Notes: generated by a model from the sequence alone, not told the origin. Positions 24,440 through 46,739 are shown, numbered from the stretch's first letter. The stretch is 64,000 nt of DNA from an uncultured delta proteobacterium (GCA_963706575.1 CAVPNL010000001.1:384001-448000), one strand, 5' to 3'. Numbers and translations: made by a program.

Positions 24440-24563
24440 GAAGCCATCTCGAAAATAGGATTTTGGTTCAAGATTCCGTCTTCGCCAAAAGGCTTCGCCG
24501 GGACATGCGAGGCACCAATCCCGCCAAAGGCGGGAGGTCAAAAGACATTTTTGAGATGGCTTC
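24440..24563. repeat. REP/MITE-like element with 17-bp terminal inverted repeats
   Basis: GAAGCCATCTCGAAAAT (24440-24456) / ATTTTTGAGATGGCTTC (24547-24563), 16/17 match; internal CCCGCCAAAGGCGGG hairpin. Confidence 0.72.
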
Positions 24564-25304: not shown

Positions 25305-25323
25305 CGTTTTCTCCTTTTAAAAA

Positions 25324-25758: not shown

Positions 25759-25779
25759 GTTGTTATTCTGTTTCTATTT

Positions 25780-26229: not shown

Positions 26230-26254
26230 AGGTTCAGTCTTTCATTCGCCTTCA

Positions 26255-27475
26255 TTAAACTTGTAAAATAATGGATTCTCCCTGGCCAAGTCCACCACAA
26301 ATGGCGGCTGCACCGCTGCCGCCTCCCCGGCGCATCAATTCATACATCAATGTCATGGTGATACGCGCTCCACTGGCCCCAACCGGGTGCCCAATGGCAA
26401 TGGCGCCGCCGTTGACATTGGTGATCTCCTGAAGGGCGTTGTATTTATAGGCATCCATTTCGGCCAAGGCCTTTAACGAAACCAGGGTAACGGCCGCAAA
26501 CGCCTCGTTGATTTCGATGAGATCCAGGTCGTCGATAGTTTTTTGGGTGTTGGAAAGCGCCTTATTAATGGCCTTGGCGGGCAGGGTGGCCATATAGTTG
26601 GGTTCCGCCGCATCCCAGGCCATGGTTTCAATGGCGGCCAGGGGTTGAAGACCCAGTTTGTCGGCCTTCTTGCGGCTCATGATCACAATCGCCGAACCAC
26701 CGGCGTTCATCCCCGGCGCATTTCCGGCAGTCACGGTTGGGCTGCCGTATATGGTCCTGAGTTTTGCCAGTTTTTCCAAAGAGGTCTTGCGCGGCGGTTC
26801 GTCTCGGTCGAAGACAATGGGATCACCCTTGCGCTGGGGGATCTCAAGTGCCATGATTTCTTGGCCGACTTTATATTTTCCTTCTTCATAGGCTGCTGCC
26901 CAGCGTTCTTGGCTTCTCAGGCCCCAATTGTCTTGCTCCGCCCTGTCAATTTCGAATTCCAAAGCGACTTCACCGGCATCCAGCGCCACCGGATTGAAGC
27001 CTTTTTTGCCGTACCCCAGCTCAAACAGGATATCGACCATCTGGATATGGCCCAACCGGTTACCCCAGCGGCCGCTTTTGGCTTCCACCAGGTGACAGGC
27101 GTTGCCCATATTTTCTGCCCCGCAGGCAATTGCCACATCTGCTTCCCCGGAACGGATGGCACGAAACCCTAATCGCAGTGCCGTCATGGACGAACAGCAC
27201 GCCCGATCGAGGGTCAGGGAGATGCTGTCGGACGGAAATCCCGCCAGCAGGGTGATTTGCCTGGCCGGGACATTCAAATAGGGGGCATATTCGGCGGGAA
27301 TACAGGTTCCGTAATAAAGCTCATCCACCTCCGCAGGATCGAGTTGAATCCGATTGAGCGCTTCCTTAACCACCATGACACCCAGATCGATGCTGGGAAC
27401 ATCCTTGAGAACCCCGTCAAAGCGACCGAAAGGGGTTCTGACCGCACTGACAATGACCGCATCGGTACTATCCAT
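26255..27475 (-). CDS. Thiolase (acetyl-CoA C-acyltransferase)
   Basis: Likely start MDSTDAVIVSAVRTPFG; DRACCSS, VTAGNA, EINEAFA, GHPVGASG, CGGLGQG. Confidence 0.93.
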   Translation of the reverse strand: MDSTDAVIVSAVRTPFGRFDGVLKDVPSIDLGVMVVKEALNRIQLDPAEVDELYYGTCIPAEYAPYLNVPARQITLLAGFPSDSISLTLDRACCSSMTALRLGFRAIRSGEADVAIACGAENMGNACHLVEAKSGRWGNRLGHIQMVDILFELGYGKKGFNPVALDAGEVALEFEIDRAEQDNWGLRSQERWAAAYEEGKYKVGQEIMALEIPQRKGDPIVFDRDEPPRKTSLEKLAKLRTIYGSPTVTAGNAPGMNAGGSAIVIMSRKKADKLGLQPLAAIETMAWDAAEPNYMATLPAKAINKALSNTQKTIDDLDLIEINEAFAAVTLVSLKALAEMDAYKYNALQEITNVNGGAIAIGHPVGASGARITMTLMYELMRRGGGSGAAAICGGLGQGESIILQV

Positions 27476-27506
27476 AATGTTTTCCTTGTTTTTACGCGTT
27501 AACGGT

Positions 27507-29058
27507 TTAAACCGGCATGATGCCGTGCTTGCGGGGCGATTGCGATGCACTGCTTTTTATCAAGCATCTTAAGGGCCTGGATCGTTTTTATTCGGGTCTC
27601 GGCCGGATCGATGATGTCGTCAATCACCCGTAAACCTGCTGCCAGGTAAGGCGTTGCGTAATTTTTTTCATATTCTGCAATAAATTTTTGACGGGCAGCT
27701 GCAGGATCCGACGCGCTGGCAATTTCTTTGGCCCAGATGACCTCAGCAGCGCCTTCCGGGCCCATGGAAGCGCATTCCGCCGTGGGCCAGGCGTAGACCA
27801 GGTCGATCCCCAGTTCCTTGGGGCCCATAGCCGACCAACCGCCACCGTACGCCTTGCGCAGGATGATCGTGATCATGGGCACCGTGGCTTCAGAATAGGC
27901 GTAGAGCATTTTTGCGCCGTGGCGGATGATTCCTCCGTACTCCTGGTCAATGCCCGGCAGAAAGGCAGTCGTGTCCATTAAGGTGACGATGGGGATGTTA
28001 AATGCATCCAGGATCTGAATAAATCGGGCACCCTTATCGGATGCATTGATATCGATGCTGCCACCTAAAAATTTGGACTGGTTGGCAATAATGCCGATAC
28101 TGCGACCATCCATTCTGGCAAGGCCGATCACCAGATTGGGCGCATATTCCGGTTTGATTTCTAAAAACTGTCCATCATCTACAATTTCCTGAATGACCCG
28201 ACGCACATCATAGACTTTTTTCTTTTCAGCCGGCACGATTTCCAGCAGCCCCGGGCATCGTCTCCCAGGGTCATCTGTGGTGGCGATCCTGGGCGGTTTC
28301 TCAAAGCAATTGGGCGGAAAATAGGACAATAGCGCTTTGATCGTTTCCAGACAATCATCGTCATTTTCGGTTTCAAGGTCGGCCACGCCGCTCTTTCTGC
28401 AGTGAATCTGTGAGCCGCCCAACTCATCGGGGCTGGTTTCCGCTCCGGTGACCGCCTTGATCGCTGCCGGTCCGGTAATGAACATGAAGCTGGTCTTTTT
28501 GGTCATCAGGATAAAGTCCATTAGCGCCGGTGAGTAAACAGACCCCCCCGCCGAAGGTCCCATAATGGCCGCAATTTGGGGGATGACGCCGGAACACCTC
28601 GCGTTTTGGTAAAATAGCCGGGCAAAGGTAATATTTTCAGATCCCTCCTGAAGTCGTGCACCGGCCGAATCATAAAGGCCGATCAAGGGAACCTTTTGTT
28701 CATACGCCATGGCAGCCAGATCCGCCATTTTCTTCTGGTGCACCGGGCCGGCAGAACCGCCCATCACCGTAAAATCCTGGGAATATATAAAAACGGTCTG
28801 GCCTTGAATCTCCCCGTAGCCGGTAACCACCCCATCTGCCGGAAGCATCTTTTTATCCATGCCCAGACGATTGCAGCGATGGTATGCAAAAAGTCCCAAT
28901 TCAACGAATGTGTCCGGATCCAGCAGTTTTTGAATCCGCTCTCGGGCAGTCAGCTTTCCTTTTTTATGCTGGGCTTCAATTTTGGCCGAACCGCCCCCTA
29001 GTTCCAATTCGGCGCGTCGCTCTTTCAGTTCTTGGATTTTATCTTTCATCAAGCTCAT
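27507..29058 (-). CDS. Acyl-CoA carboxylase/decarboxylase carboxyltransferase subunit (PccB/MmdA-like); 1-nt frameshift at ~27549
   Basis: GKLTARERI, QDFTVMGGS, DSAGARLQEG, GPSAGG, IIRHGAK, RKAYGG; the conserved C-terminus (ASQSPRKHGIMPV*) lies in the +1 frame, ending at 27507. Confidence 0.9.
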
Positions 29059-29101
29059 CACTTTGCCTTTCGAATTGATGCGTGAATCCATCCGGTTTGA
29101 C

Positions 29102-30319
29102 TCAGATTACCCCTTCATCTTTCAATCGCTGAATATCTTCCTTGCCATAATCCAAAAAATTCCGAAGGATATCCTCTGTATGCTCTCCCAGCAGCGGTGC
29201 TGCCTTGCGGATATCACCGGGGGTTTTAGACATTTTTACCGGTGGGCCAGCAATCTGAAGCAGGCCTGCAATAGGATGCTGGACTTCGACCAGCATTTCT
29301 CTGGCCTTAACCTGAGGACATTTGAAGATATCATCCACCGTTTGCACCGGTGCGACCGGCACATCATGTTTGATCAACAATTCAACCAGCGCATCCCGAT
29401 TGTTGGATTTGACCCAGGTCTCGATGATGGGTCTGAGATAATGGTAATTTTCAGCGCGTCCCGACATGGATTGGAGTTCGGGTTTTTCGAGCAGATGATC
29501 CTGTTTCATGGTATGGCAGAAGTTTTGCCAATGTTTTTCCCAGTGGCCGGCAATAACGATATATTTTCCATCCTTTGTTTCGAAACAATCATAAGGCGCA
29601 TAAAGGGGATGTGCATTTCCTTCCCGGCCTGAAATGATACCGGATATGGAGTACATCATGATCGCGCGTTCGATCATATAAAGCATGGTATCATACATGG
29701 CGCAATCCACATGTTGTCCCTTACCGGTTTTGTTGGCATCGTGTAAAGCCACCATTGTCGCAAATGCGGCAATGGTGGACGTCCAGATATCGCCAATCCC
29801 CGGGCCGACCTTATAGGGCATCCCGCCTTTGGGGCCGGTCATGGCCATTACTCCGCCCATGGCCTGGGCGATTAGATCAAAGGCGGGTCGTTCTCGATAG
29901 GGGCCGGTATGGCCAAATCCCGAAATGCTGGTATAGACAATTCTGGGGTTTATGGCGCTTAACGTTTCGTAGTCCAACCCCAGACGATCCATTACAGCGG
30001 GTCGGAAATTTTCGACAACAATATGGGCGGATTTCACCAATTCTTTTACAATGGCAACACCTTTTGGGTGTTTGAGATTGAGCGTCATGCTTTTTTTGTT
30101 ACGGCTGATGGATAGAAAGAATCCTCCCGCGCGGTGGTCATTGTCTTGCTGGGAAAAGGGTCCGATACTTCGCGTATTATCTCCGGTGCCCGGCTGTTCG
30201 ATTTTAATAACTTCGGCGCCATAATCACCCAGCATCATGGTGGCATATGGGCCGGCCAGCATCAGTGTGAAATCAAGCACCCGGATATCTTTGAGCGCCT
30301 GCTGAGAAGGTGGATTCAT
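29102..30319 (-). CDS. Family III CoA-transferase (CaiB/BaiF)
   Basis: RVLDFTLMLAGP, GAEVIKIE, RNKKS, ENFRP, SISGFG, catalytic Asp in GIGDI, APLLGEHT. Confidence 0.93.
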   Translation of the reverse strand: MNPPSQQALKDIRVLDFTLMLAGPYATMMLGDYGAEVIKIEQPGTGDNTRSIGPFSQQDNDHRAGGFFLSISRNKKSMTLNLKHPKGVAIVKELVKSAHIVVENFRPAVMDRLGLDYETLSAINPRIVYTSISGFGHTGPYRERPAFDLIAQAMGGVMAMTGPKGGMPYKVGPGIGDIWTSTIAAFATMVALHDANKTGKGQHVDCAMYDTMLYMIERAIMMYSISGIISGREGNAHPLYAPYDCFETKDGKYIVIAGHWEKHWQNFCHTMKQDHLLEKPELQSMSGRAENYHYLRPIIETWVKSNNRDALVELLIKHDVPVAPVQTVDDIFKCPQVKAREMLVEVQHPIAGLLQIAGPPVKMSKTPGDIRKAAPLLGEHTEDILRNFLDYGKEDIQRLKDEGVI

Positions 30320-30406
30320 TTCCAGCTCATCATCGTTGTTCGGATCACCCGTTTGAGATGGGCTTCTGGTTTAGGAAGAGCGCAATTTTATTGCCATTAA
30401 AAATTT

Positions 30407-30458
30407 AATTAAATTTTGAATTATTTTTGGATTATATTCGGCGGTCTGAGGATGTCAA
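30407..30458 (-). promoter_or_regulatory. sigma70 promoter plus 16-bp operator for the CoA-transferase/beta-oxidation operon
   Basis: Minus-strand TTGACA (30458-30453)-N16-TATAAT (30436-30431); operator AATTAAATTTTGAATT at 30407-30422. Confidence 0.7.
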
Positions 30459-30572
30459 GAAAAATTTTTTCTTAGACGCATGGCGACCAGCTTTTATATA
30501 AATCTTATCATTTATATTGTAAACAAGGAATGTTACCGGTGAAATGGCGTTAAGAACAGATTGAACTTTTGC

Positions 30573-30615
30573 TTGACAGGAATTAATTATTGAATTAAAG
30601 AAAAAATTAAATTTT
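30573..30615 (+). promoter_or_regulatory. Promoter/operator upstream of trpB2
   Basis: TTGACA 30573-30578 followed by AATTAATTATTGAATT (30581-30596) and AATTAAATTTT. Confidence 0.65.
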
Positions 30616-31026
30616 ATTCATTTTTTGAAGCTCAGGCAATTAGGGATACAACTTGAGGTAACCGAATTAAATTCAACGTCTACAAATCAAACAGCACCGC
30701 TTTACAAAAGAGACAGAGTAGGATAATAAACGCATTTGATTGTATTCCCGAAATTTCTACAAACTAATATTTCGCTAAGCGATTGATAAAATTTATAATT
30801 AATTTTTTAAGCGGATAGACTTCTTGCGCTTTCGCCGGGTCGGACGGATAGCAAATCTAAGCACCTAAAAGGCTTTACCGGTTTTATAAATTAATAATTT
30901 GGGGGGAAATCCATGAAAGGAGGTGTGAGAATCTAAAAGGATTTATTTTCAGTCATATTGCTAAAACGAAGGGCATGGGTTGTTGATGTCTAAATAGTGC
31001 ATAAAATAAATTTAAGGAGGGTTCTT

Positions 31027-32409
31027 ATGAAAACTAAAAAGATTTTTTTGCCTGAGTCTGAGTTGCCGCGGTACTGGTATAATATTTTGCCCGACATGCC
31101 GACACCGATGGAGCCACCTCTTCATCCGGGGACCGGCCAACCGGTGGGGCCAGATGATCTGGAACCGCTTATCCCCATGGCAATAATCGAACAAGAAGTG
31201 AGTCAAGAACGCGAGATCCCTATCCCGGAAGAGGTCCTTGAAAAATATGCCATCTGGCGACCCTCACCCCTTTATCGCGCCTTTGCCCTTGAGGAAGCGC
31301 TTGGCACGCCTGCCAAGATCTATTTCAAGAACGAGGGGGTTAGTCCTGCTGGAAGCCATAAGCCCAACACAGCGGTTGCCCAGGCGTATTACAATAAAGT
31401 AGCCGGAACCAAGCAAATATATACGGAGACCGGAGCCGGCCAATGGGGAAGTGCGCTCTCTTTTGCCTGCGCCCTCTTTGGGTTGCCCGTTCAAGTCTTC
31501 ATGGTCAAAGTCAGTTTTTTTCAGAAACCCATGCGGCGGGTGATGATGGAGACCTGGGGGGGCAAATGCGTACCCAGTCCCTCCACCGAAACCCAGGTGG
31601 GCCGAAATATCCTTGAAAAAGACCCGGATAACCTGGGCAGTCTGGGTATCGCCATCAGTGAAGGCGTGGAAAAAGTCGTACAAGACCCGGACGCCAAATA
31701 CTGTCTGGGAAGTGCCTTAAATCATGTGCTTCTGCATCAGACCATAAATGGTCTTGAATGCCAAAAACAGATGAAAATTGCCGGAGACTATCCGGATGTG
31801 ATTATCGGGTGCTCAGGCGGTGGAAGTAATTTTGGCGGCATCATGCTTCCGTTTGCCAGAGATAAGATCAATGGCAAAGATATTGATATTATCGGCGTCG
31901 AACCCACCTCCTGTCCGACCATGACCCGGGGACCGTTTGCCTACGACTTTGCCGACACTGCTGGAACCACACCGCTTTTCCCCATGCATACCGTGGGTCA
32001 TGAGTTCATGCCGCCGGCCATCCATGCCGGAGGCTTGAGATATCATGGTAATGCCCCGATTAACAGCCAACTCCTTTTGGACGGCATCATCAGGGCCGAG
32101 GCCATCTCCCAGCTCGAAACCTTTGAAGCCGGTGTTATGTTTGCCAGGTGCGAAGGATTCATCACAGCCCCGGAGACCAACCATGCCTTAGCCCAGGCCA
32201 TCCGCGAAGCCAAGAAGGCCAAGGAAGAAGGCAAAGAAAAGGTTATTCTCTTTAACTGGAGCGGACACGGGCTGATCGACATGAACGCTTATGAGGCTTA
32301 TCTTGCCGGCGATCTTGAAGATTACGCACTTTCAGAAGAAGAGCTAACCCGAGCACTGGCACAGCTTGACGATCTGCCGAAACCCAAGCAATACGTTCCT
32401 GTGAAATAA
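31027..32409 (+). CDS. trpB2: TrpB2 (type 2 tryptophan synthase beta chain-like PLP enzyme)
   Basis: [47 protein letters not shown] (PLP lysine), [30 protein letters not shown]; no trpA nearby. Confidence 0.93.
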
Positions 32410-32427
32410 AGTCAATGTGCTGATCTG

Positions 32428-32456
32428 ATACCGGGGGCTTTTTTAGCCCCCGGTAT
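32428..32456 (+). terminator. Hairpin after trpB2 (putative terminator or processing site)
   Basis: ATACCGGGGGCT-TTTTT-AGCCCCCGGTAT, perfect 12-bp stem; no clear U tract. Confidence 0.55.
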
Positions 32457-32478
32457 TCGGTAATGAATAAGGTACGAG

Positions 32479-32760
32479 ATGAGCAAGCCATCAAAACCGC
32501 CGGATGACGATTTTGAGATTCGGTGCCCCAAGCTCGGGCACCAAATTTATTTTTCCTATTGCGCCAAAGAGAACCAGGGGGTTCCCTGTTACCGGACCCT
32601 TGATTGCTGGTTTGGGCATTTTGAGGTTGAAGCATTCCTTAAAAAAACGCTGACACCTGCCGAATGGAAAGCGGCGTTCACCAATCCTCCCAAACCCAAG
32701 ATTGCCTCATTGCTTGAAATGATCGAACAGGCAAAAAATAGGCAGACGAAAGAATCTTAA
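32479..32760 (+). CDS. Hypothetical small Cys-containing protein
   Basis: RCPKLGHQIYFSYC...PCYRTLDCW, four Cys plus His; AAGG RBS upstream. Confidence 0.6.
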   Translation: MSKPSKPPDDDFEIRCPKLGHQIYFSYCAKENQGVPCYRTLDCWFGHFEVEAFLKKTLTPAEWKAAFTNPPKPKIASLLEMIEQAKNRQTKES

Positions 32761-32810
32761 AGGGAAAGGGAATCTGCGGTGCCCATCAAACCTACCGCAA
32801 CATTCAATCG

Positions 32811-33518
32811 ATGTATTTTTGCCATTCACCAGAAATAAAAAAACAATTTCCCCGGATTGTATCGGGCGCCATGTTTATTGATACGATTCACCCGGGTGTT
32901 GATGCCGAACCTTATCTTAAACCCTGGTACCAGAATGCCCGCAGCCGTCTAGAGACACAAACCGAATCGCAGATGCCTGAGATCAGTGCCTGGCGCAAGG
33001 CATACAGCCAGATGGGCTTAAAGCCCACCAAATATCGTTCTGCGGCCGAAGCACTGTTAAGACGGTTTCGGCGTGAAGACGATTTGCCCCGCCTGCACCC
33101 CCTGGTGGATTACTGCAATGCGCTTTCCCTGGCCTTTGCGATTCCGGTAGCGGCTTTTGATCTGGACCGGGTCGCAGAATACATCGAAGTCCGACACGCC
33201 AAAGGAACAGAGCAGCATCTGGCGTTTGGTGGTAAAATGGAACACCCATCACCGGACGAAGTCATTTTATGCGATGCTCTGGATCATGCGCACGGCAGGC
33301 GCTGGACATTTCGACAAAGCTGGCAGTCCATCGTCACACCCGAAACAAAAAAAGTGTTGGTTCTCAGCGAAGCCATGCATGAATCCGCCGATGTCGATGT
33401 GCCCGTGTTGATGGACCAACTGGCTGAAGGTATTAGCGCCCTGTGGTCGCCCCCCAAACAGCGTGGCATGATCACCGCTGCATCCGACCGGCTCGAAGTT
33501 TTAGCAACGCCATCCTAA
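32811..33518 (+). CDS. B3/B4 domain protein (PheRS-editing-domain-like)
   Basis: ISAWRKAYSQMGLKPTKYRSAAEALLRR...LPRLHPLVDYCNALSL...AFDLD...RRWTFRQS. Confidence 0.85.
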   Translation: MYFCHSPEIKKQFPRIVSGAMFIDTIHPGVDAEPYLKPWYQNARSRLETQTESQMPEISAWRKAYSQMGLKPTKYRSAAEALLRRFRREDDLPRLHPLVDYCNALSLAFAIPVAAFDLDRVAEYIEVRHAKGTEQHLAFGGKMEHPSPDEVILCDALDHAHGRRWTFRQSWQSIVTPETKKVLVLSEAMHESADVDVPVLMDQLAEGISALWSPPKQRGMITAASDRLEVLATPS

Positions 33519-33692
33519 GCCTTATTTTTGATTTTCATCCAAATCGAAAAAATGCTGCTGTAAATCGTCGCAGTGCAGAAAAAATCGATACCGATCGATT
33601 TTTTTGAATAGGCGGATTGTTTCAGAAGGGCCAATGAAAACATGAAAATGATGCGGGGGACAGCATGAAACCGTCCCCCGTCAAATGGATCG

Positions 33693-34280
33693 TTATTGTA
33701 CCGCGGCAAATCCGAGATCAAAGGCCTTTAGATTCGACTCCAGGAAGGCCTTTTTGGTTGAAGTCGAAATGGTCTCTTTCATATCTGCTGCACTGATGGG
33801 AATCGTTTCTGAGCCGATCAGCGCTCCCAGCATGACCATGTTCAAGGACAACGGATTGCCGGCTTTTTCAGCCAGGGCGGATCCGTCAAAAGCGATGACC
33901 TTATCGATTTTGGATTTGATCAATGACATAATTTCTTCCAAAGGTGGATAAACACCCTGTCCCAGAGCCGCGGTGAACGGTTGCATCGATCTTGTGTTGG
34001 TGATCACAACGGTTTTGCGGTTGCATTTACTCAGACCCCGCAGGGTTTCAAGGGGTTCGAAACTCAGGAATACATCGCTTTCGCCGGGAGAAATTATGGG
34101 GCTGCTGATGTCGCCCAATAAAACAGCTGATTCCACAATTCCTCCGCGTTGCGCCATGCCGTGTATCTCACTGGCAACCACGGGCATGCCCAGCGTAAGG
34201 GCGGCCTCGCCCAGAAGATTTGTGGCCAAAAGATTTCCCTGGCCGCCGACACCGATAACGACTATTTTTTTAGGTTCCAT
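33693..34280 (-). CDS. iorB: Indolepyruvate:ferredoxin oxidoreductase beta subunit
   Basis: GVGGQGNLL, SEIHGMAQRGG, FEPLETLR, NMVMLGAL. Confidence 0.92.
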   Translation of the reverse strand: MEPKKIVVIGVGGQGNLLATNLLGEAALTLGMPVVASEIHGMAQRGGIVESAVLLGDISSPIISPGESDVFLSFEPLETLRGLSKCNRKTVVITNTRSMQPFTAALGQGVYPPLEEIMSLIKSKIDKVIAFDGSALAEKAGNPLSLNMVMLGALIGSETIPISAADMKETISTSTKKAFLESNLKAFDLGFAAVQ

Positions 34281-34295
34281 AAAAGCCTCCCGCTA

Positions 34296-36152
34296 TTATT
34301 CTTTTATTGGCAAAATTGCATTTTCAGGACAGATTTGCGCGCATACCGTGCACCCGGTGCAAAGATGTTTATGGATTCCCACTTTTTCATCTTCCACATA
34401 CATGGCCGGGCAGGCCAGTTTGTTTAAGCAAATCTTGTGGTTCTGGCATTTCTCCTGATTGATATAAAAGGGCTTTGAGCGTTTCAGCTGGCTCGTGGCC
34501 CTGGCAAACAGGGGACACATCTCCTCAGAAATGATGACCGATATGCCGTCATATTCAGCCGACGCTTTAATTTTTTCTATGGCACTTTTAACCCTGAAAG
34601 GCCGGATCAGATGCACATCTTCAACGCCACACCCTCTGACGATCTGCTCGATGGAAACGCGTGTGCGCGGGACGCCCAGGCCCAGGGGCTCGGTGTCCAC
34701 GCCGGGGTGGATCTGGTATCCGGTCATCGCCGTCGTACCGTTGTCCAGGATGACCAGAGTGAATTTGTGATTGTTGTGGACGCCATTGATCAGGCCGGTG
34801 ATGCCGGAATGAAAAAAAGTGGAATCGCCGATGAAACCGACCACTTTTTGATCGGTGGCCTGGGAAAAGCCGCAGGAAGAAGTCGCTGAAGATCCCATGC
34901 AAATAATGAAATCGGCCATGTTAAAAGGCGGCATAATCCCTAAAGTATAACATCCGATATCGGTGGGATAGACTGTATCCGATCCATAGACCTCTTTGAC
35001 CGCGTAATAAGTGGCCCGGTGGGGGCAGCCCGCACACAGGTTCGGAGGGCGCCCGGGCAAAGCCGGCACATCAGAGAGTTCCGGAATTTCAGGCAGGCTG
35101 CAATCCACACCGAAATATTCGGCAATGGCCTGTCGAACCATACCCGGATTATATTCTAGGAGGCGCGATAAAGAACCCACCCCTTTGCCGTTTATTGCAA
35201 TGGTCATATCGTTTCGGTGGGCCAATGCCTGCAGTTCTCTTTCGTTCAGGGGCTCAAGCTCTTCGACGACGAGTACTTTTTCTACCTGGTTCATAAACTC
35301 CAGACACAGCTTCTCGGGTAACGGCCAGGAGAATCCCAGCTTTAAAATACTTACCTGATCGGAAATGCCCAGATCCGATACGGCATCCATCACATAATTG
35401 AAGCTCACGCCGTTGGCAACAATTCCCCATTTCCCCTTGCCGATGATTTCGTTGTACGTCCAGGTTTCGGCGATTTCCTGTGCCTGTTGATATTTTTGCA
35501 AAAGGTGCTGATGAAGCACCCGGGAGTGAGCCGGCATGGTGACCCACTGGGCAGGGTTCTTTTCGAATCGGCCCTTTGTTTTGAACGGCTTTAATTCACC
35601 TAGCTCGACTTTGCCCCGAATGTGGTTCAGGCGTGTGGTGGTTCGTAAAAGCACCGGTAGCTTGAGCGTTTCGGATAGGTCGAAGGCCAGGGTGGCGACA
35701 TCTTTCATTTCTTGCGCATTGGTGGGTTCCAATAAAGGAATACCGGCGAGACGGGCATACTGCCGGTTGTCCTGTTCATTTTGACTCGAGAAAAGATAAG
35801 GGTCGTCAGCGTTAACGATGACCATGCCCCCCTCTACGCCCACATATGCCAGGGACATCAAGGGGTCGGCGGCCACATTGAGCCCGACCTGTTTCATGGT
35901 GACCATCGTTCTGAGACCACTGGCAGCCGCAGCTGAACCCACTTCCATCGCGACTTTCTCATTGGTTGAGTACTCGAAGTAAAGGTCCGTCTCCTGACTG
36001 ATGTCAAAAAATTGGGCGGGGATTTCAGACGAGGGGGTTCCCGGGTAGCAGGTGGCAAACGACATTCCGGCCTCAAGGGCTCCCCGGGCAATGGCTTCAT
36101 TGCCCAGAAGGAACATGGCTTTACCCGGCGAATCGGTTAATAGCTTGTGCAT
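34296..36152 (-). CDS. iorA: Indolepyruvate:ferredoxin oxidoreductase alpha subunit
   Basis: LLGNEAIARG, YPGTPSSEI, NEKVAME, SSQNEQDNR, RPPNLCAGCPHR, DIGCYTLG, IGDSTFFHSG, LDNGTTAMTG, C-terminal 4Fe-4S motifs. Confidence 0.94.
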   Translation of the reverse strand: MHKLLTDSPGKAMFLLGNEAIARGALEAGMSFATCYPGTPSSEIPAQFFDISQETDLYFEYSTNEKVAMEVGSAAAASGLRTMVTMKQVGLNVAADPLMSLAYVGVEGGMVIVNADDPYLFSSQNEQDNRQYARLAGIPLLEPTNAQEMKDVATLAFDLSETLKLPVLLRTTTRLNHIRGKVELGELKPFKTKGRFEKNPAQWVTMPAHSRVLHQHLLQKYQQAQEIAETWTYNEIIGKGKWGIVANGVSFNYVMDAVSDLGISDQVSILKLGFSWPLPEKLCLEFMNQVEKVLVVEELEPLNERELQALAHRNDMTIAINGKGVGSLSRLLEYNPGMVRQAIAEYFGVDCSLPEIPELSDVPALPGRPPNLCAGCPHRATYYAVKEVYGSDTVYPTDIGCYTLGIMPPFNMADFIICMGSSATSSCGFSQATDQKVVGFIGDSTFFHSGITGLINGVHNNHKFTLVILDNGTTAMTGYQIHPGVDTEPLGLGVPRTRVSIEQIVRGCGVEDVHLIRPFRVKSAIEKIKASAEYDGISVIISEEMCPLFARATSQLKRSKPFYINQEKCQNHKICLNKLACPAMYVEDEKVGIHKHLCTGCTVCAQICPENAILPIKE

Positions 36153-36240
36153 GATTACCTCCAATGGTTTCAAATTCAGAATTTATTATTTTTCAAAATT
36201 TTTTGGATTTAATTGTCGTCAGAAACCGAATTCTAAAAAT

Positions 36241-36960
36241 TTATTTATGGGGCAGATAAGGATCTCGATTTTTCATAAAGTCTTTGTAAATTTTATAATG
36301 TTCTGTTTCTTCGTAGCGAATCCGTTTAACGGGCATTTGGTCAAAACTATAGATATCCGCACCGGGACACGCCAATAAAATCGGAGAATGGGTCGCAATA
36401 ATAAATTGGGCATGACCGGCTATGCTCATATCACATAATATGGTCAACAGCTCCAACTGACTTTTCGGAGACAGCGCGGTTTCGGGTTCGTCAAGAAAAT
36501 AGAGGCCCTTGATTTTATAGCGACCCCTGAAAAGCGACATCAGCGATTGACCGTGGGACTGGGTGATTAAAGATTCTCCGCCAAAATATTTAAATATTTC
36601 CGGATTTACGGTGGCGCCTTCATCCAGGTATTTGGCAAAATCCTTGAACGTCGCAGAGGAGAAAAATGATCCCGGCACGCTGCCATCCGTCCACTTTACC
36701 GCCATAAAAAGGTACAGGACTTTTTCATAGGGATTGGGCTTATAACGGGTGCCGCCAAGACCTTGCCAAATTGGAATGTTGCACTTTTTACATATGGCGG
36801 TGAGCAGCGTAGATTTTCCGGTTCCATTTTCGCCTACGAAAAAGGTCACCGGTTTACGAAAGGCGATGCTGGCGGTGGTTTGAAAAATAGCCTGATTGAA
36901 CGGGTAGTGGTCTTTGGTTGGATATTTTTCTGGAAAAAGGGTGATCTCCTCGAGATGCAT
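36241..36960 (-). CDS. Stand-alone ABC/AAA-type ATPase
   Basis: Walker A GENGTGKST, QSHGQS signature, LYFLDEPETALSP, IIATHSPILL. Confidence 0.85.
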   Translation of the reverse strand: MHLEEITLFPEKYPTKDHYPFNQAIFQTTASIAFRKPVTFFVGENGTGKSTLLTAICKKCNIPIWQGLGGTRYKPNPYEKVLYLFMAVKWTDGSVPGSFFSSATFKDFAKYLDEGATVNPEIFKYFGGESLITQSHGQSLMSLFRGRYKIKGLYFLDEPETALSPKSQLELLTILCDMSIAGHAQFIIATHSPILLACPGADIYSFDQMPVKRIRYEETEHYKIYKDFMKNRDPYLPHK

Positions 36961-36990
36961 TGAATCGTCTCTCCAATCGGATACTGAATT

Positions 36991-37046
36991 AATTAATTTT
37001 TGAATTATTTTTTATGGGTTATATGGATAAGATGGCTTCAGGTCAA
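36991..37046 (-). promoter_or_regulatory. Promoter/operator for the ATPase-iorAB unit
   Basis: Minus-strand TTGACC (37046-37041)-N17-TATAAC; operator AATTAATTTTTGAATT at 36991-37006. Confidence 0.65.
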
Positions 37047-37193
37047 GGAAAAATTTAATCTGGCCTGAAAATTATCATCGAGGTTTATTTAAAAACCAAC
37101 TTATAATCAAATATTTGAAATTATTATGGTAAATTTAGTTTTCGGTTTCCTGATTTTTTTTAACTTTACCCCTGTTGAATCTATGATAATATA

Positions 37194-37238
37194 TTGACTC
37201 TTTTATCAAATTAAATTAAATAAAAAATTAAATTAAAT
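37194..37238 (+). promoter_or_regulatory. Promoter with degenerate operator upstream of serC
   Basis: TTGACT 37194-37199, then TTTATCAAATTAAATT at the same offset as the other rightward sites, then AATTAAATT. Confidence 0.5.
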
Positions 37239-37379
37239 AGAATCAGATTCGCATAGTAGACAGAATCTGCCGTCTTGTATTCAAACGGCGTTTTTGTTTA
37301 AATCAAGAGCACATTCATCTATCGAGAAAGACCAAATTAGCCCAAAATCGATCGTTGAAAATTAAGGGAGGAATAGAAG

Positions 37380-38468
37380 ATGGCAAACAGAATATTCAAT
37401 TTTTCAGCCGGGCCCTGCACGTTGCCGCTACCCGCACTCGAAAAAGCGCAGACCGAGTTCGTTGATTACCAGGGTGCTGGAATGTCCCTGACCGAAATGA
37501 GTCACCGGGGCAAACATTACGATGATGTGCACTATGCCGCCATCGCCAATATCCGTGAAGTGCTCAACGTGCCGGAAAGCCACGATGTTTTGTTTATCCA
37601 GGGCGGCGCTACATTGCAGTTTGCCATGGTCCCCTTGAACTTCATAATAGATGGCAAAAGTGCAGAATTTCTCAATACAGGAACCTGGGTCAAAAAAGCG
37701 ATTGCCGATGCCGAAAAGATAGGACCGACCCGTATTGTCTGGACCGGAGAGTCCGAAAATTTTACGCGTATCCCCGGCAAAGATGAGTATAAAGTAGGAG
37801 AAGATGCCGCTTATCTCCACATTTGCGGCAACGAGACCATCGGCGGAATCGAGTACCATGTGTATCCGGATACGTCAGCGGTGCCGCTGGTTGCGGATAT
37901 GTCTTCTCATATCATGTCGCGACCGATCGACTGGAGCAAACTCGACCTGGCGTTTGCCGGTGCTCAGAAAAATCTGGGTCCTGCCGGCCTGGCACTGGTT
38001 ATCATCAATAAAGCTCTTTTGGACAAGTGTAAAGACGGCCTGCCGGCCTATCTGTCCTATAAAACCCATGCCGCTAAAGATTCGCTGTATAACACGCCTC
38101 CGGTGTTTGCCATTTATATGATGAAGCTAACCATTGACTGGGTAAAATCCGAGGGCGGACTGGCTGAAATGGAAAAAAGGGCGCTGGCGCGTTCCGGCGC
38201 GCTTTACGACACCATCGACAGCTCTGGGGGATGGTATCGCTGCCCGGTGGACAAAGCCTCTCGCTCCCGCATGAATGTTTGTTTCCGTCTGCCGACAGAA
38301 GAGCTGGAGACAAAGTTCATTGCTGAAGCGCTAACAGCCAATTTTTCCGGCCTTAAGGGTCACCGTTCAGTTGGCGGTTGCCGGGCATCTATGTACAATG
38401 CCATGCCGCTGGAAGGTGCCGAAAAACTGGCGGAATTTATGGCGGACTTTAAAAAGAAAAACGCTTGA
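37380..38468 (+). CDS. serC: Phosphoserine aminotransferase
   Basis: FNFSAGP, EMSHRG, FIQGGATLQF, NETIGG, ADMSS, AGAQKNLGPAG (PLP lysine), LYNTPP, RSRMNV, GHRSVGGCRASMYNA. Confidence 0.95.
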   Translation: MANRIFNFSAGPCTLPLPALEKAQTEFVDYQGAGMSLTEMSHRGKHYDDVHYAAIANIREVLNVPESHDVLFIQGGATLQFAMVPLNFIIDGKSAEFLNTGTWVKKAIADAEKIGPTRIVWTGESENFTRIPGKDEYKVGEDAAYLHICGNETIGGIEYHVYPDTSAVPLVADMSSHIMSRPIDWSKLDLAFAGAQKNLGPAGLALVIINKALLDKCKDGLPAYLSYKTHAAKDSLYNTPPVFAIYMMKLTIDWVKSEGGLAEMEKRALARSGALYDTIDSSGGWYRCPVDKASRSRMNVCFRLPTEELETKFIAEALTANFSGLKGHRSVGGCRASMYNAMPLEGAEKLAEFMADFKKKNA

Positions 38469-38550
38469 TCAGTAAATTAGGGGAGGGGCTTAGTTCCAAC
38501 CCATAGAACCGGAACTTTTTCACCTTTGGGTCGTGCAGGTTTTTAAATTT

Positions 38551-39765
38551 TTAATCTGACATTCTCAAATCTTTCGCAAAAAGCCAACCGGCAAGCCCAC
38601 ATAAGGCACCCCCGATTCCAATCAGCAAAAATAGGGTGGGTGCATCTATCCATTCCAGGATCAAACCAGACAGTCCCGCAGATATTGCCGACATTCCCAC
38701 CACCGAAAGATGCATCAAGGCAAAAATTCGACCGGTCATATTGGCCGGGACGATATCTTGAATCAACGATGTTCGGGGTACAACCAGCAGCGGGATCGCG
38801 ACAGCGTGAATGGTAACGAGAATAGCCGCGGCACTCAAGGATTGAACAAAATAAATCGGGATAAAGGTAATACCATCCCAGATTATTCCGGTGAGCAGAA
38901 GATAGCCCTTTTTGAAACGGCCCCCGAAAAGAAAAAGGCCGCCGCTGCCGATAAGGGTTCCAACGGCAAAACAAGACATGATTATCGCGTAGGCGGCTGC
39001 GTCCAATCCAAGGGTTTCTCTAACGAACACCGGCGTGCCAACAATTGCCGGTCCCATGATCAAAAGATTATCGGCAATGGTGATCAACAACAGTGGAAAG
39101 ATCACCGAGTGTCTTAAAGCGAAAAGCAGTCCATCCTTGACTTCTTTCAGACCGGTGGCGTCTTTGGTGCTTCCCGAGAATTTCCGGACCGGCCGAATAA
39201 AAAATACGAGGACAAACGAAAACAAATAGGCTGACGAACAGGCTGTAAAGAGATGAACGTTTCCGAAATAATGCAGCAAGAAACCCGCGATAGCAGGACC
39301 GAGCAGCAGCGAAATTTGCCAGGATGTCTGAATGAGCGAGTTCGCTTTCAATAGGCCTTCTTTGGCAACGATCTGCGGTACAAACGCGTCTTTGGCGGGG
39401 TTGAAAAAGGTCGCTGCTATCGCAATGGCAAAGGCATTGATTCCCAGGAATTGAGGATTTAAGAAATCGACGAAAAAAGCGATAGGGATCAAAAAGACCA
39501 GAATAAAGCGAAACGCATCAGATACAAGCATTATTTTTCTTCGATCGCTATGATCAGCAGTAACACCGGCAACCATTGAAAGCAGAACGGCAGGCAAATA
39601 CGAGGCCATGGCAACCATACCGGTGACTGAAGTGGAGCCGGAAAGTTCCAGGACCAGCCACAGCAATCCGATTTGATAGATCGAATCACCACTCTGAGAG
39701 GCCATCTGCCCCAGCCAGAGCAAGGCCAGATTCCGATTTTGAAATATCTTTTGGAAATAAGTCAT
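38551..39765 (-). CDS. MFS transporter (DHA3/MefA-like)
   Basis: LWLGQMASQSGD, AGVTADHSDRRKIM motif A, about 12 hydrophobic segments. Confidence 0.88.
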   Translation of the reverse strand: MTYFQKIFQNRNLALLWLGQMASQSGDSIYQIGLLWLVLELSGSTSVTGMVAMASYLPAVLLSMVAGVTADHSDRRKIMLVSDAFRFILVFLIPIAFFVDFLNPQFLGINAFAIAIAATFFNPAKDAFVPQIVAKEGLLKANSLIQTSWQISLLLGPAIAGFLLHYFGNVHLFTACSSAYLFSFVLVFFIRPVRKFSGSTKDATGLKEVKDGLLFALRHSVIFPLLLITIADNLLIMGPAIVGTPVFVRETLGLDAAAYAIIMSCFAVGTLIGSGGLFLFGGRFKKGYLLLTGIIWDGITFIPIYFVQSLSAAAILVTIHAVAIPLLVVPRTSLIQDIVPANMTGRIFALMHLSVVGMSAISAGLSGLILEWIDAPTLFLLIGIGGALCGLAGWLFAKDLRMSD

Positions 39766-39845
39766 AAGATAATGAATAATGAATGATCGGGCAGGGAGAT
39801 GATTTGATTTGCCCAGAGAAAGCGAATCAATGTCGCCATAAATTT

Positions 39846-39897
39846 AATTAAATATTGAATTCTTTTTACGATGATCATCGAATTTAAACTTTGTCAA
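39846..39897 (-). promoter_or_regulatory. Operator and -35 box upstream of the MFS gene
   Basis: AATTAAATATTGAATT at 39846-39861 (near-perfect palindrome); minus-strand TTGACA at 39897-39892. Confidence 0.6.
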
Positions 39898-40017
39898 ATA
39901 ATGATCACCTCCTATCGAAAAATTCGCGTAAATTGATTGAATTATAAAGTAATATCTATCTAACGCCATGCGGTTAATTTCACTGTCGGATCCTGCATTG
40001 AATAAAGGACTTTTCTC

Positions 40018-40060
40018 TTGACAGGGATTAATTATTGAATTAAAAGTGAAATTAAATTTA
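40018..40060 (+). promoter_or_regulatory. Promoter/operator upstream of the gntR-mutase-Mo enzyme operon
   Basis: TTGACA 40018-40023, GATTAATTATTGAATT 40026-40041, AATTAAATTT; nearly identical to 30573-30615. Confidence 0.68.
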
Positions 40061-40077
40061 ACCGTTTACGAAAGAAA

Positions 40078-40758
40078 ATGACGATGAAAAATGAGAAAGA
40101 AAACAAGACTCTTATAGAGGACGCATACCGTAAAATCAAGCAGATGATCTTTCAGCAAAAGGTCATCCCTGGACAGCGACTGGTTTACAGTGATTTGTGC
40201 AAGCTTTTTGACATGTCCAGAACCCCGATTATTAATGCACTTACTCGACTCGAACAGGAAGGCTTTCTTGTTTCCGAGGCCTTCCGCGGTTTTCAGGTAA
40301 AACCCATCGACCTTCAGGAACTCTGGGACCTTTTCGAAGTGCGCGAAGCACTTGAGTCGTATGCCGTCGAAAAAGCCATCGAAAGAGCCGAGCCTTTAGA
40401 TTTTGAAATACTTGAGGAAAAACTTCGCAATCATCAGCAATACATGCCGGACAGCTACACCCCCAAAAAATTCATGGTGGATGCTGAATTTCATGTTCAG
40501 ATCGCGGCGATGACCAAAAATAAAGTTCTGGAGAAAATGCTGAAGACAAATTTGGAGCACGTCAATCTTCGCTTCCGTTTGGACAGTTGCGATTCTTCAA
40601 GAATGCCGCTGGCGGTTGAGGAGCATCATGAGCTGGTGGAAAGGATGAAGAAGAAGGATGTGTTAAAGAGCGTTGAAATTATCCGAATGCATGTGCGCAG
40701 TGCGCGGGATACGTGTCTAAATTGTCTGTCCATGGAAGAGGAGACAATTGGTCTTTAA
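40078..40758 (+). CDS. GntR family transcriptional regulator (FCD domain)
   Basis: AYRKIKQMI...PGQRL...MSRTPIINALTRLEQEG wHTH; REALE, DAEFH...N, EHHELV FCD residues. Confidence 0.92.
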   Translation: MTMKNEKENKTLIEDAYRKIKQMIFQQKVIPGQRLVYSDLCKLFDMSRTPIINALTRLEQEGFLVSEAFRGFQVKPIDLQELWDLFEVREALESYAVEKAIERAEPLDFEILEEKLRNHQQYMPDSYTPKKFMVDAEFHVQIAAMTKNKVLEKMLKTNLEHVNLRFRLDSCDSSRMPLAVEEHHELVERMKKKDVLKSVEIIRMHVRSARDTCLNCLSMEEETIGL

Positions 40759-40801
40759 TGGATGGGATCGTACTGGCCATTTATTACGCAGGTAAATGAC
40801 G

Positions 40802-42480
40802 ATGGATCAAGGACAGATAAAAAAGGAAATGAAGGCGTGGGAACAAACCGCGCTTAAACGTGTATTGGACAAAAGCTGCTGAACGTGAGGCCGTCTTTAC
40901 CACCGAAAGCGGAATTCCGGTAAAGCGCCTTTACACACCATTGGATTTGCCGGATGCGGACTATAATGGCGATCTGGGTTACCCCGGAGAATATCCCTAT
41001 ACCCGCGGGGTTTATCCCACGATGTATCGCGGACGCCTCTGGACCATGCGAAACTATGCCGGATTTGGCACGGCGGAAGATACCAATAAACGCTTTCGCT
41101 ATCTTCTGGAACAGGGAATGCCGGGATTGTCCGTTGCTTTCGATCTGCCCACCCAGGTTGGATATGATTCCGACCACCCGATGTCAGAAGGCGCAGTGGG
41201 TCGCGTTGGCGTGGCGGTGGACACTCTGGCGGATATGGAGATCATTTTCAATGATATTCCGTTAGACCGGGTTTCGACTTCCATGACCATCAATTCGCCG
41301 GCCACCGTTTTGCTGGCCATGTACATCGCCGTCGGGGAGAAGCAGGGTGTCCCCAAAGAAAAGTTGATGGGCACCACCCAGAACGATATTTTAAAAGAAT
41401 TTATTGCCAGAGGAACCTATATCTTCCCGCCGGAGCCGAGCCTGAAGCTGACCATGGATGTCATTGAGTATTGTTACAAACATGTTCCCAAGTGGAATAC
41501 CCTCAGTATCACCGGATATCATTTCAGAGAGGCCGGTGCAAATGCCATCCAGGAACTGGCCTTTACCCTGGCAGATGCGATCCTCTATATCGAGAATGCG
41601 CTGGAACGCGGTCTGGATGTGGATGATTTTGCGCCCCGATTGTCTTACAGCCTGTCATGCCACCGGGATTTATTCGAGGAAGTGGCCAAATACCGGGCTG
41701 CCAGACGAATGTTCGCAAAAATTGTCAAAGAACGTTTTAATGCTCAAAACCCCAAGAGCTGCCTGTTCAGGACATACAGCGGATCGTGCGGATCAACCTT
41801 GACGCCCCAGCAACCGCAGAATAATATTGTTCGTATCGCCATGCATGCCCTGATGGGGGTTTTGGGCGGCCATCAAGCGATCCATACGGCCTGCTGGGAT
41901 GAGGGTTATGCCATTCCGACCGAAGACTCCGCTCGCCTGGCATTAAGGACCCAACAGATCCTGGCCCACGAGAGCGGTCTTTGTAACACCATTGATCCGC
42001 TGGCCGGTTCCTATTACGTGGAAGCCTTAACCGATGAAATCGAAAAACGGACCTCGGAATATTTAAACAAAATCGATGAAATGGGAGGGATGCTTAAAGC
42101 CATTGAAAACGGTTTTGTCTTCAGAGAGATTCAGGAATCCAGTGTTGAATTTCAGCGCAAGGTGGACAGCGGAGAGAAAGTCATCGTGGGACTGAACAAG
42201 TTCGTCATGCCGGAAGAAGAAGATGTTGAGCAACAGGATATATTTGAATACGATCAACGGATTGAGAAAATTCAGCAAGAAAAACTGGCACAGGTAAAAG
42301 CCAAAAGGGATGCGAAACAGGTGACTGCAGGCTTTGCAGAAGTTAGATCGCGCCATCGATCAAAACGGAAATCTGATGCCGTATATCGTCGATGCTGTCC
42401 AGTGTTACGCCAGTCTTGGCGAAATATGCGGCGTCATGCGGCAGAAATGGGGGGAGTACAGCCCGCCCATCTATCTATAA
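40802..42480 (+). CDS. B12-dependent acyl-CoA mutase, large subunit (split methylmalonyl-CoA mutase family); two 1-nt frameshifts (~40874, ~42325)
   Basis: MDQGQIKKEMKAWEQTALKRVLDK / AAERE.FTTESGIPV, PGEYPYTRGVY, WTMRNYAGFG, GLSVAFDLPTQ, QNDILKEFIARG, GYHFREAG, DPLAGSYYVE; native C-terminus NLMPYIVDAVQCYASLGEICGVMRQKWGEY in the +1 frame, stop at 42480. Confidence 0.9.
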
Positions 42481-42519
42481 CCCATCTCAAAACACAATCG
42501 GAAAACCGGGAAACATACC

Positions 42520-42924: not shown

Positions 42925-43011
42925 ACGAATCATGAATTCATTGGCATACAGGATTTTCTGAACTTGAAATATGAAAGATAACGGCAAGTGTGCGGAAAGG
43001 GAACGAGTTCG

Positions 43012-46724: not shown

Positions 46725-46739
46725 CAAAGGGGAGCAGAT

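Follow-up and report, generated by a model that had tools for sequence, protein, structure and literature searches.

Gene organisation of the locus

This study concerns a 64,000-nucleotide stretch of DNA from an uncultured delta proteobacterium (GCA_963706575.1 CAVPNL010000001.1:384001-448000), hereafter called the window (G000:C1:384001-448000), in which genes for a stand-alone tryptophan synthase beta-like enzyme (trpB2), a putative indolepyruvate:ferredoxin oxidoreductase (IOR; iorAB) and a phosphoserine aminotransferase (serC) lie together at positions 31027-38468. The assembly, a metagenome-assembled genome (MAG) of the Desulfobacterales, comprises 5.67 Mb in 25 contigs with a completeness of 91.8% and a contamination of 6.4%. 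Genes were called by Pfam and NCBIfam profile scans, which covered 59 open reading frames (ORFs) of the window; G, C and L numbers denote genomes, contigs and loci. The profile scores bear out the identities of trpB2, iorAB and serC given in a preliminary description of this DNA, which had not listed the small ORF, the B3_4-domain gene and the ATPase gene of the same interval:

31027-32409, plus strand: trpB2, stand-alone TrpB-like pyridoxal phosphate (PLP) enzyme (NF009057, 706.7 bits, cut-off 366)
32479-32760, plus strand: ORF for a 93-aa protein with four cysteines, directly after trpB2
32811-33518, plus strand: stand-alone B3_4-domain gene (PheRS-beta-like domain; PF03483, 78 bits)
33693-34280, minus strand: iorB (PF01558; NF005323, 206.8 bits, cut-off 238, and TIGR03334, 191.7 bits, cut-off 205.8, both slightly below)
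34296-36152, minus strand: iorA, IOR alpha family (TIGR03336, 763 bits, cut-off 650.9; ATG at 36152, preceded by GGAGG)
36241-36960, minus strand: ABC-type ATPase of 239 aa, heading the iorAB operon (partial AAA_21 and AAA_15 matches)
37380-38468, plus strand: serC (TIGR01364, 475.7 bits, cut-off 443.6)

As had also been stated, trpB2 is found without trpA, and serC without serA or serB, in the window. Most genes of this stretch were covered by RNA-library contigs at a likeness of 90-99%, and two such contigs span the ATPase gene and iorA. Since level, strand and induction are not readable from contigs and DNA carry-over is possible, these contigs were not counted as evidence of expression; bins that lack such coverage carry no information.

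An operator shared by four divergent intergenic regions

The same two-site AT-rich layout was found in four divergent intergenic regions (30320-31026, 36961-37379, 39766-40077 and 51356-51814; regions 1 to 4). Site A adjoins the minus-strand gene just 3' of a TATAAT-like box, and site B is fused to a TTGACA (TTGAC-linked) element for the plus-strand gene:

Region 1: site A, 30401-30428; site B, 30567-30614
Region 2: site A, 36985-37012; site B, 37188-37235
Region 3: site A, 39840-39867; site B, 40012-40059
Region 4: site A, 51424-51451; site B, 51624-51671

Sites A and B are 170-220 bp apart in the four regions and, by reading of the sequences, share a core of AATTAA-like hexamers with 12-bp spacing. 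When the whole genome was scanned with a position weight matrix (PWM) built from the seven good sites, these scored 29-40 bits and no other place exceeded 24 bits. The high scores of the seven are circular because they formed the training set; the informative outcome is that the genome holds no eighth good site.

In region 1, site A scored 37.4 bits and site B 35.7 bits, the TTGACA of the latter lying ca. 410 nt 5' of the trpB2 start. Site A of region 2 (32.3 bits) is directly upstream of the ATPase-iorAB operon. A good operator copy therefore precedes both the trpB2-small ORF-B3_4 genes and the ATPase-iorA-iorB genes, in agreement with the shared operator described before. A related metagenome contig, L129, has lost serC but retains both operator blocks of region 2 without change. 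Since the site B block was kept there without serC, this site may act on the ATPase-iorAB promoter, for instance through a DNA loop.

A search of the whole window against Rfam at the gathering threshold returned no RNA family, and thus no riboswitch, T-box or leader for the ca. 410-nt trpB2 leader (30620-31026). This leader contains a 7-codon ORF (MKGGVRI) after a GGGGG run.

The stand-alone TrpB2 and its small partner

TrpB2 of the window also exceeded the cut-off of TIGR01415 (618 bits, cut-off 518.85) and remained far below that of canonical TrpB (TIGR00263, 139 bits, cut-off 392), and its nearest solved structures are the Sulfolobus TrpB2 chains 6hul, 4qys and 6hte. The PLP-lysine motif SHKPN and the GGGSNF motif are intact; 40 sequences, that of the window among them, all share H111, K112, P113, N114 and G264-F269. 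The gene is the sole TrpB-like gene of the genome. Use of O-phosphoserine as a substrate and a high affinity for indole are known properties of TrpB2 enzymes (Busch 2014; Hettwer & Sterner 2002, as cited in the excerpt of PMC11917138).

We analysed 97 TrpB2 loci, 80 from genome contigs and 17 from relatives, after dropping duplicates (L026 = L046, L028 = L055, L041 = L058). TrpB2 of 34 loci, hereafter the clade loci, is at least 72% identical to that of the window; in the tree, the clade holding the window has 33 rows (approximate likelihood ratio test support, 99), and the lineage of the window TrpB2 sits on a long stem branch (0.37). The island trpB2 is 72-78% identical to this IOR-linked clade and 63% identical to the type usual in its genus, which indicates that it took the place of the genus-typical gene.

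A gene for the 93-aa protein follows trpB2 in 62 of the 97 loci, often with overlapping stop and start codons, and these loci span Thermodesulfobacteriota, Planctomycetota, Nitrospirota, KSB1 and Calditrichota (e.g. L073:11377-11640 and L059:11436-11672). C16, C28, C37, C43 and W44 are conserved. The protein matched no Pfam family; its AlphaFold2 model is confident (pLDDT 83.8), and a Foldseek search of the model against the Protein Data Bank gave nothing at E <= 0.001, while an Atlas search gave only clusters of hypothetical proteins. The four-cysteine protein is a candidate partner or regulator of TrpB2. The B3_4 gene follows the trpB2-small ORF pair solely in the closest relatives (L046, L128 and L129). 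Full-text literature searches found no paper describing a conserved 93-aa partner of TrpB2, and none giving TrpB2 a catabolic role or linking it with iorAB.

Linkage of trpB2 with IOR genes in other genomes

The co-directional order trpB2-small ORF-iorA-iorB was found in 19 of the 34 clade loci. Six of these loci carry too little downstream sequence (below 1.4 kb) to be informative, so that the proportion is 19 of the 28 loci with at least 2.1 kb of it; in the other nine the sequence suffices but IOR is absent. serA is directly upstream of trpB2 in five clade loci (L076, L088, L102, L115 and L078), and serC directly follows iorB in three of them (L076, L102 and L115), giving a serA-trpB2-small ORF-iorA-iorB-serC array. 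Outside the clade, G028 has the order TrpB2-small protein-SerA-IorA-IorB, an order listed for L031, and in the Syntrophorhabdus/Syntrophus clade seven of eight tree rows have TrpB2-small protein-class I/II aminotransferase-IorA-like fragment-IorB-IorA. Two further TrpB2 lineages beyond the clade of the window thus carry IOR genes in other orders. On well-supported branches of the tree, the IOR label was gained or lost at least seven times. The rows of the tree stem from related genomes and cannot be counted as independent trials; even so, the variety of gene orders suggests that this gene set was put together more than once.

Eight of the 34 clade loci have genes of the xanthine dehydrogenase (XDH) family of molybdenum (Mo) hydroxylases no more than 10 kb away. 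In L055, L071 and L082, the genes MoFAD-MoFeS-MoL are directly upstream of, and co-directional with, trpB2-small ORF-iorA-iorB, with a glyoxalase-fold gene between them in L055 and L082; a gene for an IaaL-like CoA-transferase, 66% identical to the second one of the window, lies divergently upstream in all three. A MocA/PucB-like gene follows iorB in L066, L086, L094 and L062. Homologues of the window ATPase, in which Walker A, a signature-like SHGQS, Walker B and the H-loop are conserved, are also part of this neighbourhood. They are 50-72% identical and adjoin trpB2, iorB or trpD in 7 of the 34 clade loci (homologue loci: L055:14939-15652, L071, L082, L111, L097, L123, L029 and L141); in L055, L071 and L082 the ATPase gene is directly downstream of trpD.

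A conserved trpB2-serC-iorAB synteny, which the preliminary description had raised as a check, was thus found in part: trpB2-small ORF-iorA-iorB recurs and serC joins it in three loci, but the trpB2-serC pair itself is ancestral throughout the genus, without catabolic genes.

Comparison with the iaa cluster and a proposed route

The genes on either side of the stretch are as follows:

20633-22177: CoA ligase, left of the beta-oxidation block
22382-30319, minus strand: operon of eight genes (Pfam, NCBIfam), proposed side-chain decarboxylation and beta-oxidation branch
29102-30319, minus strand: CoA-transferase III, first gene listed of this operon
27499-29091, minus strand: mmdA-like carboxyltransferase (710 bits)
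inside 22382-30319, minus strand: thiolase, two MaoC hydratases and two short-chain dehydrogenases/reductases (Pfam, NCBIfam)
22382-23548, minus strand: acyl-CoA dehydrogenase (ACAD) with YEG motif (reads EIYEGT)
38551-47216: major facilitator superfamily (MFS) transporter (minus strand), GntR/FCD regulator, B12 mutase large and small subunits, Mo-hydroxylase (Pfam, NCBIfam)
40078-40758: GntR/FCD protein, the regulator gene
within 38551-47216: XDH-family Mo-hydroxylase parts MoL, CoxG, FAD and 2Fe-2S
within 47244-58216: second CoA-transferase III, glyoxalase-fold protein, isochorismatase-family hydrolase, M24 (DoeA-like) hydrolase
within 47244-58216: AMP-forming CoA ligase, Liv-type ABC transporter

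According to the excerpt of PMC8360864, an iaa cluster for anaerobic degradation of indoleacetate (IAA) occurs in Aromatoleum aromaticum and is predicted in Desulfatiglans anilini, other sulfate reducers and Ferroglobus placidus. The window resembles it at the domain level only: a CoA ligase (IaaB), CoA-transferase III (IaaL-like) and a B12 mutase with large and small subunits (IaaGH-like) are encoded (PF01642 and PF02310, with PF02515 and AMP-binding twice each), together with beta-oxidation to an aminobenzoyl-CoA, a binding-protein transporter and local regulators. From this domain content the window is judged to be a variant of the iaa cluster. It differs in its ACAD, which has YEG where the IaaF orthologues are all said to carry GGG (PMC8360864, excerpt), and in the presence of the mmdA-like carboxyltransferase. 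It differs further in that the entry genes trpB2, small ORF, iorAB and serC are inside its regulon. The iaa pathway uses a hydantoinase-like enzyme for ring opening; no hydantoinase-type gene was found among the 59 ORFs, and M24 (DoeA-like) and isochorismatase-family hydrolases are present instead. Since the ACAD keeps YEG and an mmdA-like gene is present, the data suggest that (aminobenzyl)malonyl-CoA is decarboxylated by the carboxyltransferase rather than by an IaaF-type enzyme, as in alkylmalonyl-CoA pathways. The mutase, the carboxyltransferase and beta-oxidation would also suit an alkylsuccinate-type pathway. This was considered and rejected as the main reading: the window has no glycyl-radical enzyme, and it has the Mo-hydroxylase, amidohydrolases, iorAB and trpB2.

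We tentatively propose, at a little under an even chance, that the stretch is the entry module of an operator-controlled, iaa-like island for anaerobic breakdown of indolic compounds, in which tryptophan made by TrpB2 is an amphibolic branch point to protein and to IorAB. TrpB2, probably with the 93-aa protein, would join free indole to O-phosphoserine supplied by SerA and SerC. A tryptophanase-sized Beta_elim_lyase gene was not found in the genome, the single strong match being a 354-aa frame, so that indole would come from outside the cell. Part of the tryptophan would go to protein, since no genes for its de novo synthesis were found, and the remainder would be transaminated to indolepyruvate by SerC or by a class I/II aminotransferase encoded elsewhere. 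IorAB would oxidise indolepyruvate to indoleacetyl-CoA, which the Mo-hydroxylase, a ring-opening hydrolase (M24 or isochorismatase family), CoA-transferases, the B12 mutase, the carboxyltransferase and beta-oxidation may convert to 2-aminobenzoyl-CoA. The recurrent linkage of TrpB2, IOR, serine-pathway and Mo-hydroxylase genes and the co-regulation of the island are as predicted by a route from indole through tryptophan and indolepyruvate to indoleacetyl-CoA. On the other side, the serine genes are single housekeeping copies, many arrays lie in housekeeping or trp contexts, and G000 needs TrpB2 for tryptophan; hence the amphibolic form is favoured.

SerC as the transaminase fits the serA-trpB2-iorAB-serC arrays, which have no dedicated aminotransferase. 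A stronger version, in which TrpB2 and the four-cysteine protein act as a two-component enzyme alongside a SerC that uses tryptophan as the donor for 3-phosphohydroxypyruvate, regenerating phosphoserine before IorAB forms indoleacetyl-CoA for degradation of the ring, seems quite unlikely to us as a widespread activation pathway. Were it true, indole and 3-phosphoglycerate would give indolepyruvate and phosphate in net terms with no dedicated aromatic aminotransferase, and the serA-trpB2-small ORF-iorAB-serC arrays of Desulfobacterales MAGs would be its compact form.

serC, tryptophan biosynthesis and IorAB

A number of observations weigh against a catabolic use of tryptophan made by TrpB2, and several of them concern serC. 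This gene is the only match over the cut-off in the assembly, the second, weak SerC profile match being a NifS/IscS desulfurase, and it is 82-85% identical to serC of same-genus loci, as expected of a vertical orthologue. trpB2 is divergent to serC, without catabolic neighbours, in all six same-genus loci fetched, where trpB2 is 58-63% identical to that of the window. The CoA ligase at 20633-22177 also lies beside trpB2/serC in three of the six (L033, L039 and L040); in G000, 14.6 kb separate it from serC, filled by the beta-oxidation block, a trpB2 from a different lineage with its small ORF, B3_4, iorBA and the ATPase gene. The right flank of serC is island DNA as well. The beta-oxidation block is found beside the same type of trpB2 in G005, G014 and the metagenome contigs L128-L130 (IorA 94-97% identical). 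In L129 (IorA 94% identical; 1760-2100, compared with window 36961-38550) the MFS gene is 340 bp from the ATPase gene, with a 31-residue remnant of serC between them (tblastn E 2.8e-6). The genus-wide trpB2/serC pair and this loss identify serC as a resident housekeeping gene, now embedded in the island and later dispensable there in at least one population.

Nor does the operator favour serC. Its nearest copy, site B of region 2, scored ca. 21 bits, which is background and is matched or beaten by about a dozen unrelated or shifted AT-rich places, so that the earlier wording "degenerate" was right and if anything generous. This copy is 63% identical to the reference copy and overlaps a putative serC promoter (TTGACT-17-TAAATA). 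The region upstream of serC in G000 shows no homology to the one that separates trpB2 and serC in the rest of the genus, so that the promoter has been replaced by an island-type region whose site B has decayed. The genus-typical region holds a conserved palindrome, TGTATAC-G-GTATACA nested in TTGACT...AGTCAA (L033:10435-10764 and equivalents in L038, L039, L040, L044 and L045), which is absent from G000 and is likely to be the operator of another regulator.

TrpB2 also has an obvious anabolic task, since no de novo trp genes were found: the 91.8%-complete assembly yielded no trpA, trpB1, indole-3-glycerol phosphate synthase (trpC) or chorismate-binding enzyme (trpE). trpA was found in only four of 18 same-genus genomes and in just one of the three with 97% completeness; TrpB2 was found in 13 of the 18, and each of the 12 further families sampled in the order has it. 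trpD lies on C25, 365 bp from the contig end. C15 carries another copy, broken by frameshifts, which adjoins the aro operon and is followed by unrelated genes. An assembly gap as the reason for the missing genes is disfavoured by this C15 copy and by the 14 same-genus genomes without trpA, so that real loss is more likely than a gap, with the uncertainty that 91.8% completeness implies. These results suggest loss of de novo tryptophan synthesis at the level of the genus with retention of TrpB2, and the gene content makes G000 appear a tryptophan auxotroph. The preliminary description had raised the question of separate housekeeping serC and trpAB genes in the genome, and the assembly yielded none: serC is the sole copy, and neither trpA nor a canonical trpB was found. 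serB has two matches over the cut-off elsewhere in the genome, and serA (TIGR01327, 656.8 bits) is at C1:465440-467020, 17 kb to the right of the window, in an array serA-iorA3-iorB3. As noted before, no dedicated aromatic aminotransferase is visible in the window; no class I/II enzyme is encoded among the 59 ORFs and none could be assigned to the route, several being encoded elsewhere in the genome.

The context of the related operons is in part that of biosynthesis. The serC genes of the L076, L102 and L115 arrays are the only ones of their genomes, so that the serine genes of the arrays must also serve serine synthesis. Most trpB2-iorAB operons lie among housekeeping genes; in L066, L086, L094 and L062 the neighbours other than the MocA/PucB-like gene are of this kind. 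The Syntrophorhabdus array is preceded by (trpD...)trpF-trpB-trpA.

IorA of the window, moreover, is a different paralogue from the IorA linked to trpB2 in other genomes, with which it shares only 38-41% identity. An order-wide search with it in about 150 genomes gave no match above 62% identity, the matches being equivalents of the paralogue IorA1. G000 has four iorA paralogues, to one of which (C1:326k) that of the window is 59% identical, and in view of this number IorAB is here called a putative indolepyruvate enzyme. The serA-linked IorA3 of G000 is 49-50% identical to the trpB2-linked IorAs and 76% identical to that of G028. Of the 34 metagenome loci listed with an orthologue of the window type at 63-76% identity, 23 have it after a CoA-ligase gene, and in L141 (80% identical) iorA follows the ATPase gene, with a Mo-hydroxylase and an MFS gene alongside. 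Since the window IorA is not orthologous to the trpB2-linked IorAs, what is conserved is an association of families and not the exact genes of the window.

Finally, the anaerobic route published for indole proceeds through oxindole, isatin and anthranilate, as the excerpt of PMC6221969 describes for Desulfobacterium indolicum and consortia. Activation of indole through tryptophan, as first proposed for this locus, thus stands in part: the recurrent TrpB2-IOR linkage and the co-regulation speak for it, and the sole serC, the anabolic need for tryptophan and the non-orthologous iorAB against it. Two of the points that the preliminary description had named as refuting were also observed in part, serC being sole and vertical, with its own operator copy at background and its loss in L129.

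Alternative explanations

The island may serve tryptophan and indoleacetate only, IorAB being the entry for tryptophan and the AMP-forming ligase that for indoleacetate, with trpB2-small ORF and serC an anabolic indole-salvage pair whose placement is historical, by insertion at the old trpB2/serC locus. We consider this rather unlikely, although the genus-typical divergence of trpB2 and serC, the sole and orthologous serC, its degenerate operator copy and its loss from the island in L129, and the lack of de novo trp genes are all consistent with it. The trpB2-small ORF pair of the island, however, is of another lineage (63% identity to the genus type vs 72-78% to the IOR-linked clade), is directly behind a full operator and promoter, and was kept with the beta-oxidation block in G005, L128 and L130; the repeated link of TrpB2 to IOR and Mo-hydroxylase elsewhere would also be left unexplained. 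An anabolic reading of the whole module, in which IorAB reductively carboxylates indoleacetyl-CoA to indolepyruvate for transamination to tryptophan, TrpB2 makes tryptophan from indole, and serA and serC supply phosphoserine, is improbable in our view. Aryl-acid assimilation dependent on IOR is known in methanogens, and the sole serA and serC within a trpB2-iorAB array, the Syntrophorhabdus array directly after trpF-trpB-trpA, the housekeeping neighbours in L066, L086, L094 and L062, the absence of a de novo pathway in G000 and the CoA-ligase genes before window-type iorA would all suit such salvage. Against it are the same operator of G000 also fronting genes that would destroy indoleacetyl-CoA, and the Mo-hydroxylase and IaaL-like transferase genes in the trpB2-iorAB array of L055, L071 and L082. 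Moreover, the operon is not confined to auxotrophs, since three of the five genomes with a trpB2-iorAB operon have trpA.

In an oxindole variant, the Mo-hydroxylase would convert indole to oxindole, TrpB2 with phosphoserine would form oxindolylalanine, and transamination and IorAB would yield 2-oxindole-3-acetyl-CoA, which joins the iaa-like pathway past hydroxylation. Oxindole is the first intermediate in anaerobic cultures (PMC6221969, excerpt), and both the position of the Mo-hydroxylase genes directly upstream of trpB2 in L055, L071 and L082 and the long stem of the window TrpB2 lineage could be accommodated. No natural TrpB2 is known to accept oxindole, however, and the Mo subunit of the window is nearest to 4-hydroxybenzoyl-CoA reductase-type enzymes (673 bits, below the cut-off), which act on CoA esters; we therefore regard the variant as highly improbable. 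The amphibolic entry module remains the reading that we favour.

Comparison with other indole pathways

TrpB2 of the window resembles the O-phosphoserine-dependent tryptophan synthases of indole salvage in its profile family, closest structures and lack of a TrpA partner, but its gene lies in a catabolic regulon, its relatives form operons with iorAB, serA, serC and Mo-hydroxylase genes, and it has the 93-aa partner. In the passages cited here, the role of stand-alone TrpB2 stops at indole salvage (Hiyama 2014 on TrpB2-type salvage synthases, cited in PMC11085991). The closest precedent is in the same excerpt of PMC11085991, which describes how Bifidobacterium converts exogenous indole to tryptophan and then to indole-3-lactate. 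There too, indole enters by the TrpB reaction and tryptophan is passed to an indolepyruvate-derived product, but a canonical TrpB acts with serine and the product is excreted, whereas formation of a CoA ester and degradation of the ring are proposed here. The oxindole route shares with our proposal the substrate, a sulfate-reducing relative in the Desulfobacterales and anthranilate-level end products; it differs in hydroxylating free indole, with no need for a C3 donor, and is described by its intermediates in the excerpt of PMC6221969, which names no genes. IorAB as a bridge from tryptophan to an iaa-like pathway has a counterpart in Ferroglobus placidus. This archaeon reportedly degrades tryptophan through IOR to indoleacetyl-CoA; we know of no role proposed in that work for TrpB2 or serine-pathway genes.

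If TrpB2 feeds catabolism, a biosynthetic enzyme would be the activating step for an unreactive heteroaromatic compound at the cost of one phosphoserine. Such a cost loosely parallels that of activating phenol or aniline with ATP. If the proposal is true, the genes could serve as markers to follow how indole is turned over in guts and anoxic sediments, and the conserved pair of trpB2 and small-protein genes is a biochemical lead under any reading.

Other features of the genome and the window

The region around serA (L127; G000:C1:463079-477475) has an enoyl-CoA hydratase/3-hydroxyacyl-CoA dehydrogenase (ECH/3HCDH) fusion on the minus strand, serA-iorA3-iorB3 on the plus strand, and class-III aminotransferase and saccharopine-dehydrogenase-like genes on the minus strand. 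The module continues on the minus strand with a fused FeS/Mo hydroxylase and its FAD subunit, which make up the second Mo-hydroxylase, and an ACAD. A matching layout flanks the serA-trpB2-iorAB-serC array of L102. G000:C25:1-10568 and G000:C15:494000-504000 are two versions of a locus for TrpD, 3-deoxy-D-arabino-heptulosonate 7-phosphate (DAHP) synthase and 3-dehydroquinate (DHQ) synthase, with TrpD ca. 80% identical between them; the doubling suggests that the MAG mixes strains or is contaminated, or that one copy is a duplicate in decay.

Within the window, 7513-18585 (minus strand) is a cluster with two bacterial microcompartment (BMC) shell-domain genes (9225-9779 and 11470-11946), RnfC/Nuo51-like, ferredoxin and flavoprotein genes, split glutamate-synthase-like genes (GATase, GXGXG and Glu_synthase; 14284-17005) and a glutamine-synthetase-like gene (17221-18585). 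In its predicted gene content the cluster resembles gamma-glutamyl or N-methylglutamate-type amine pathways beside a microcompartment.

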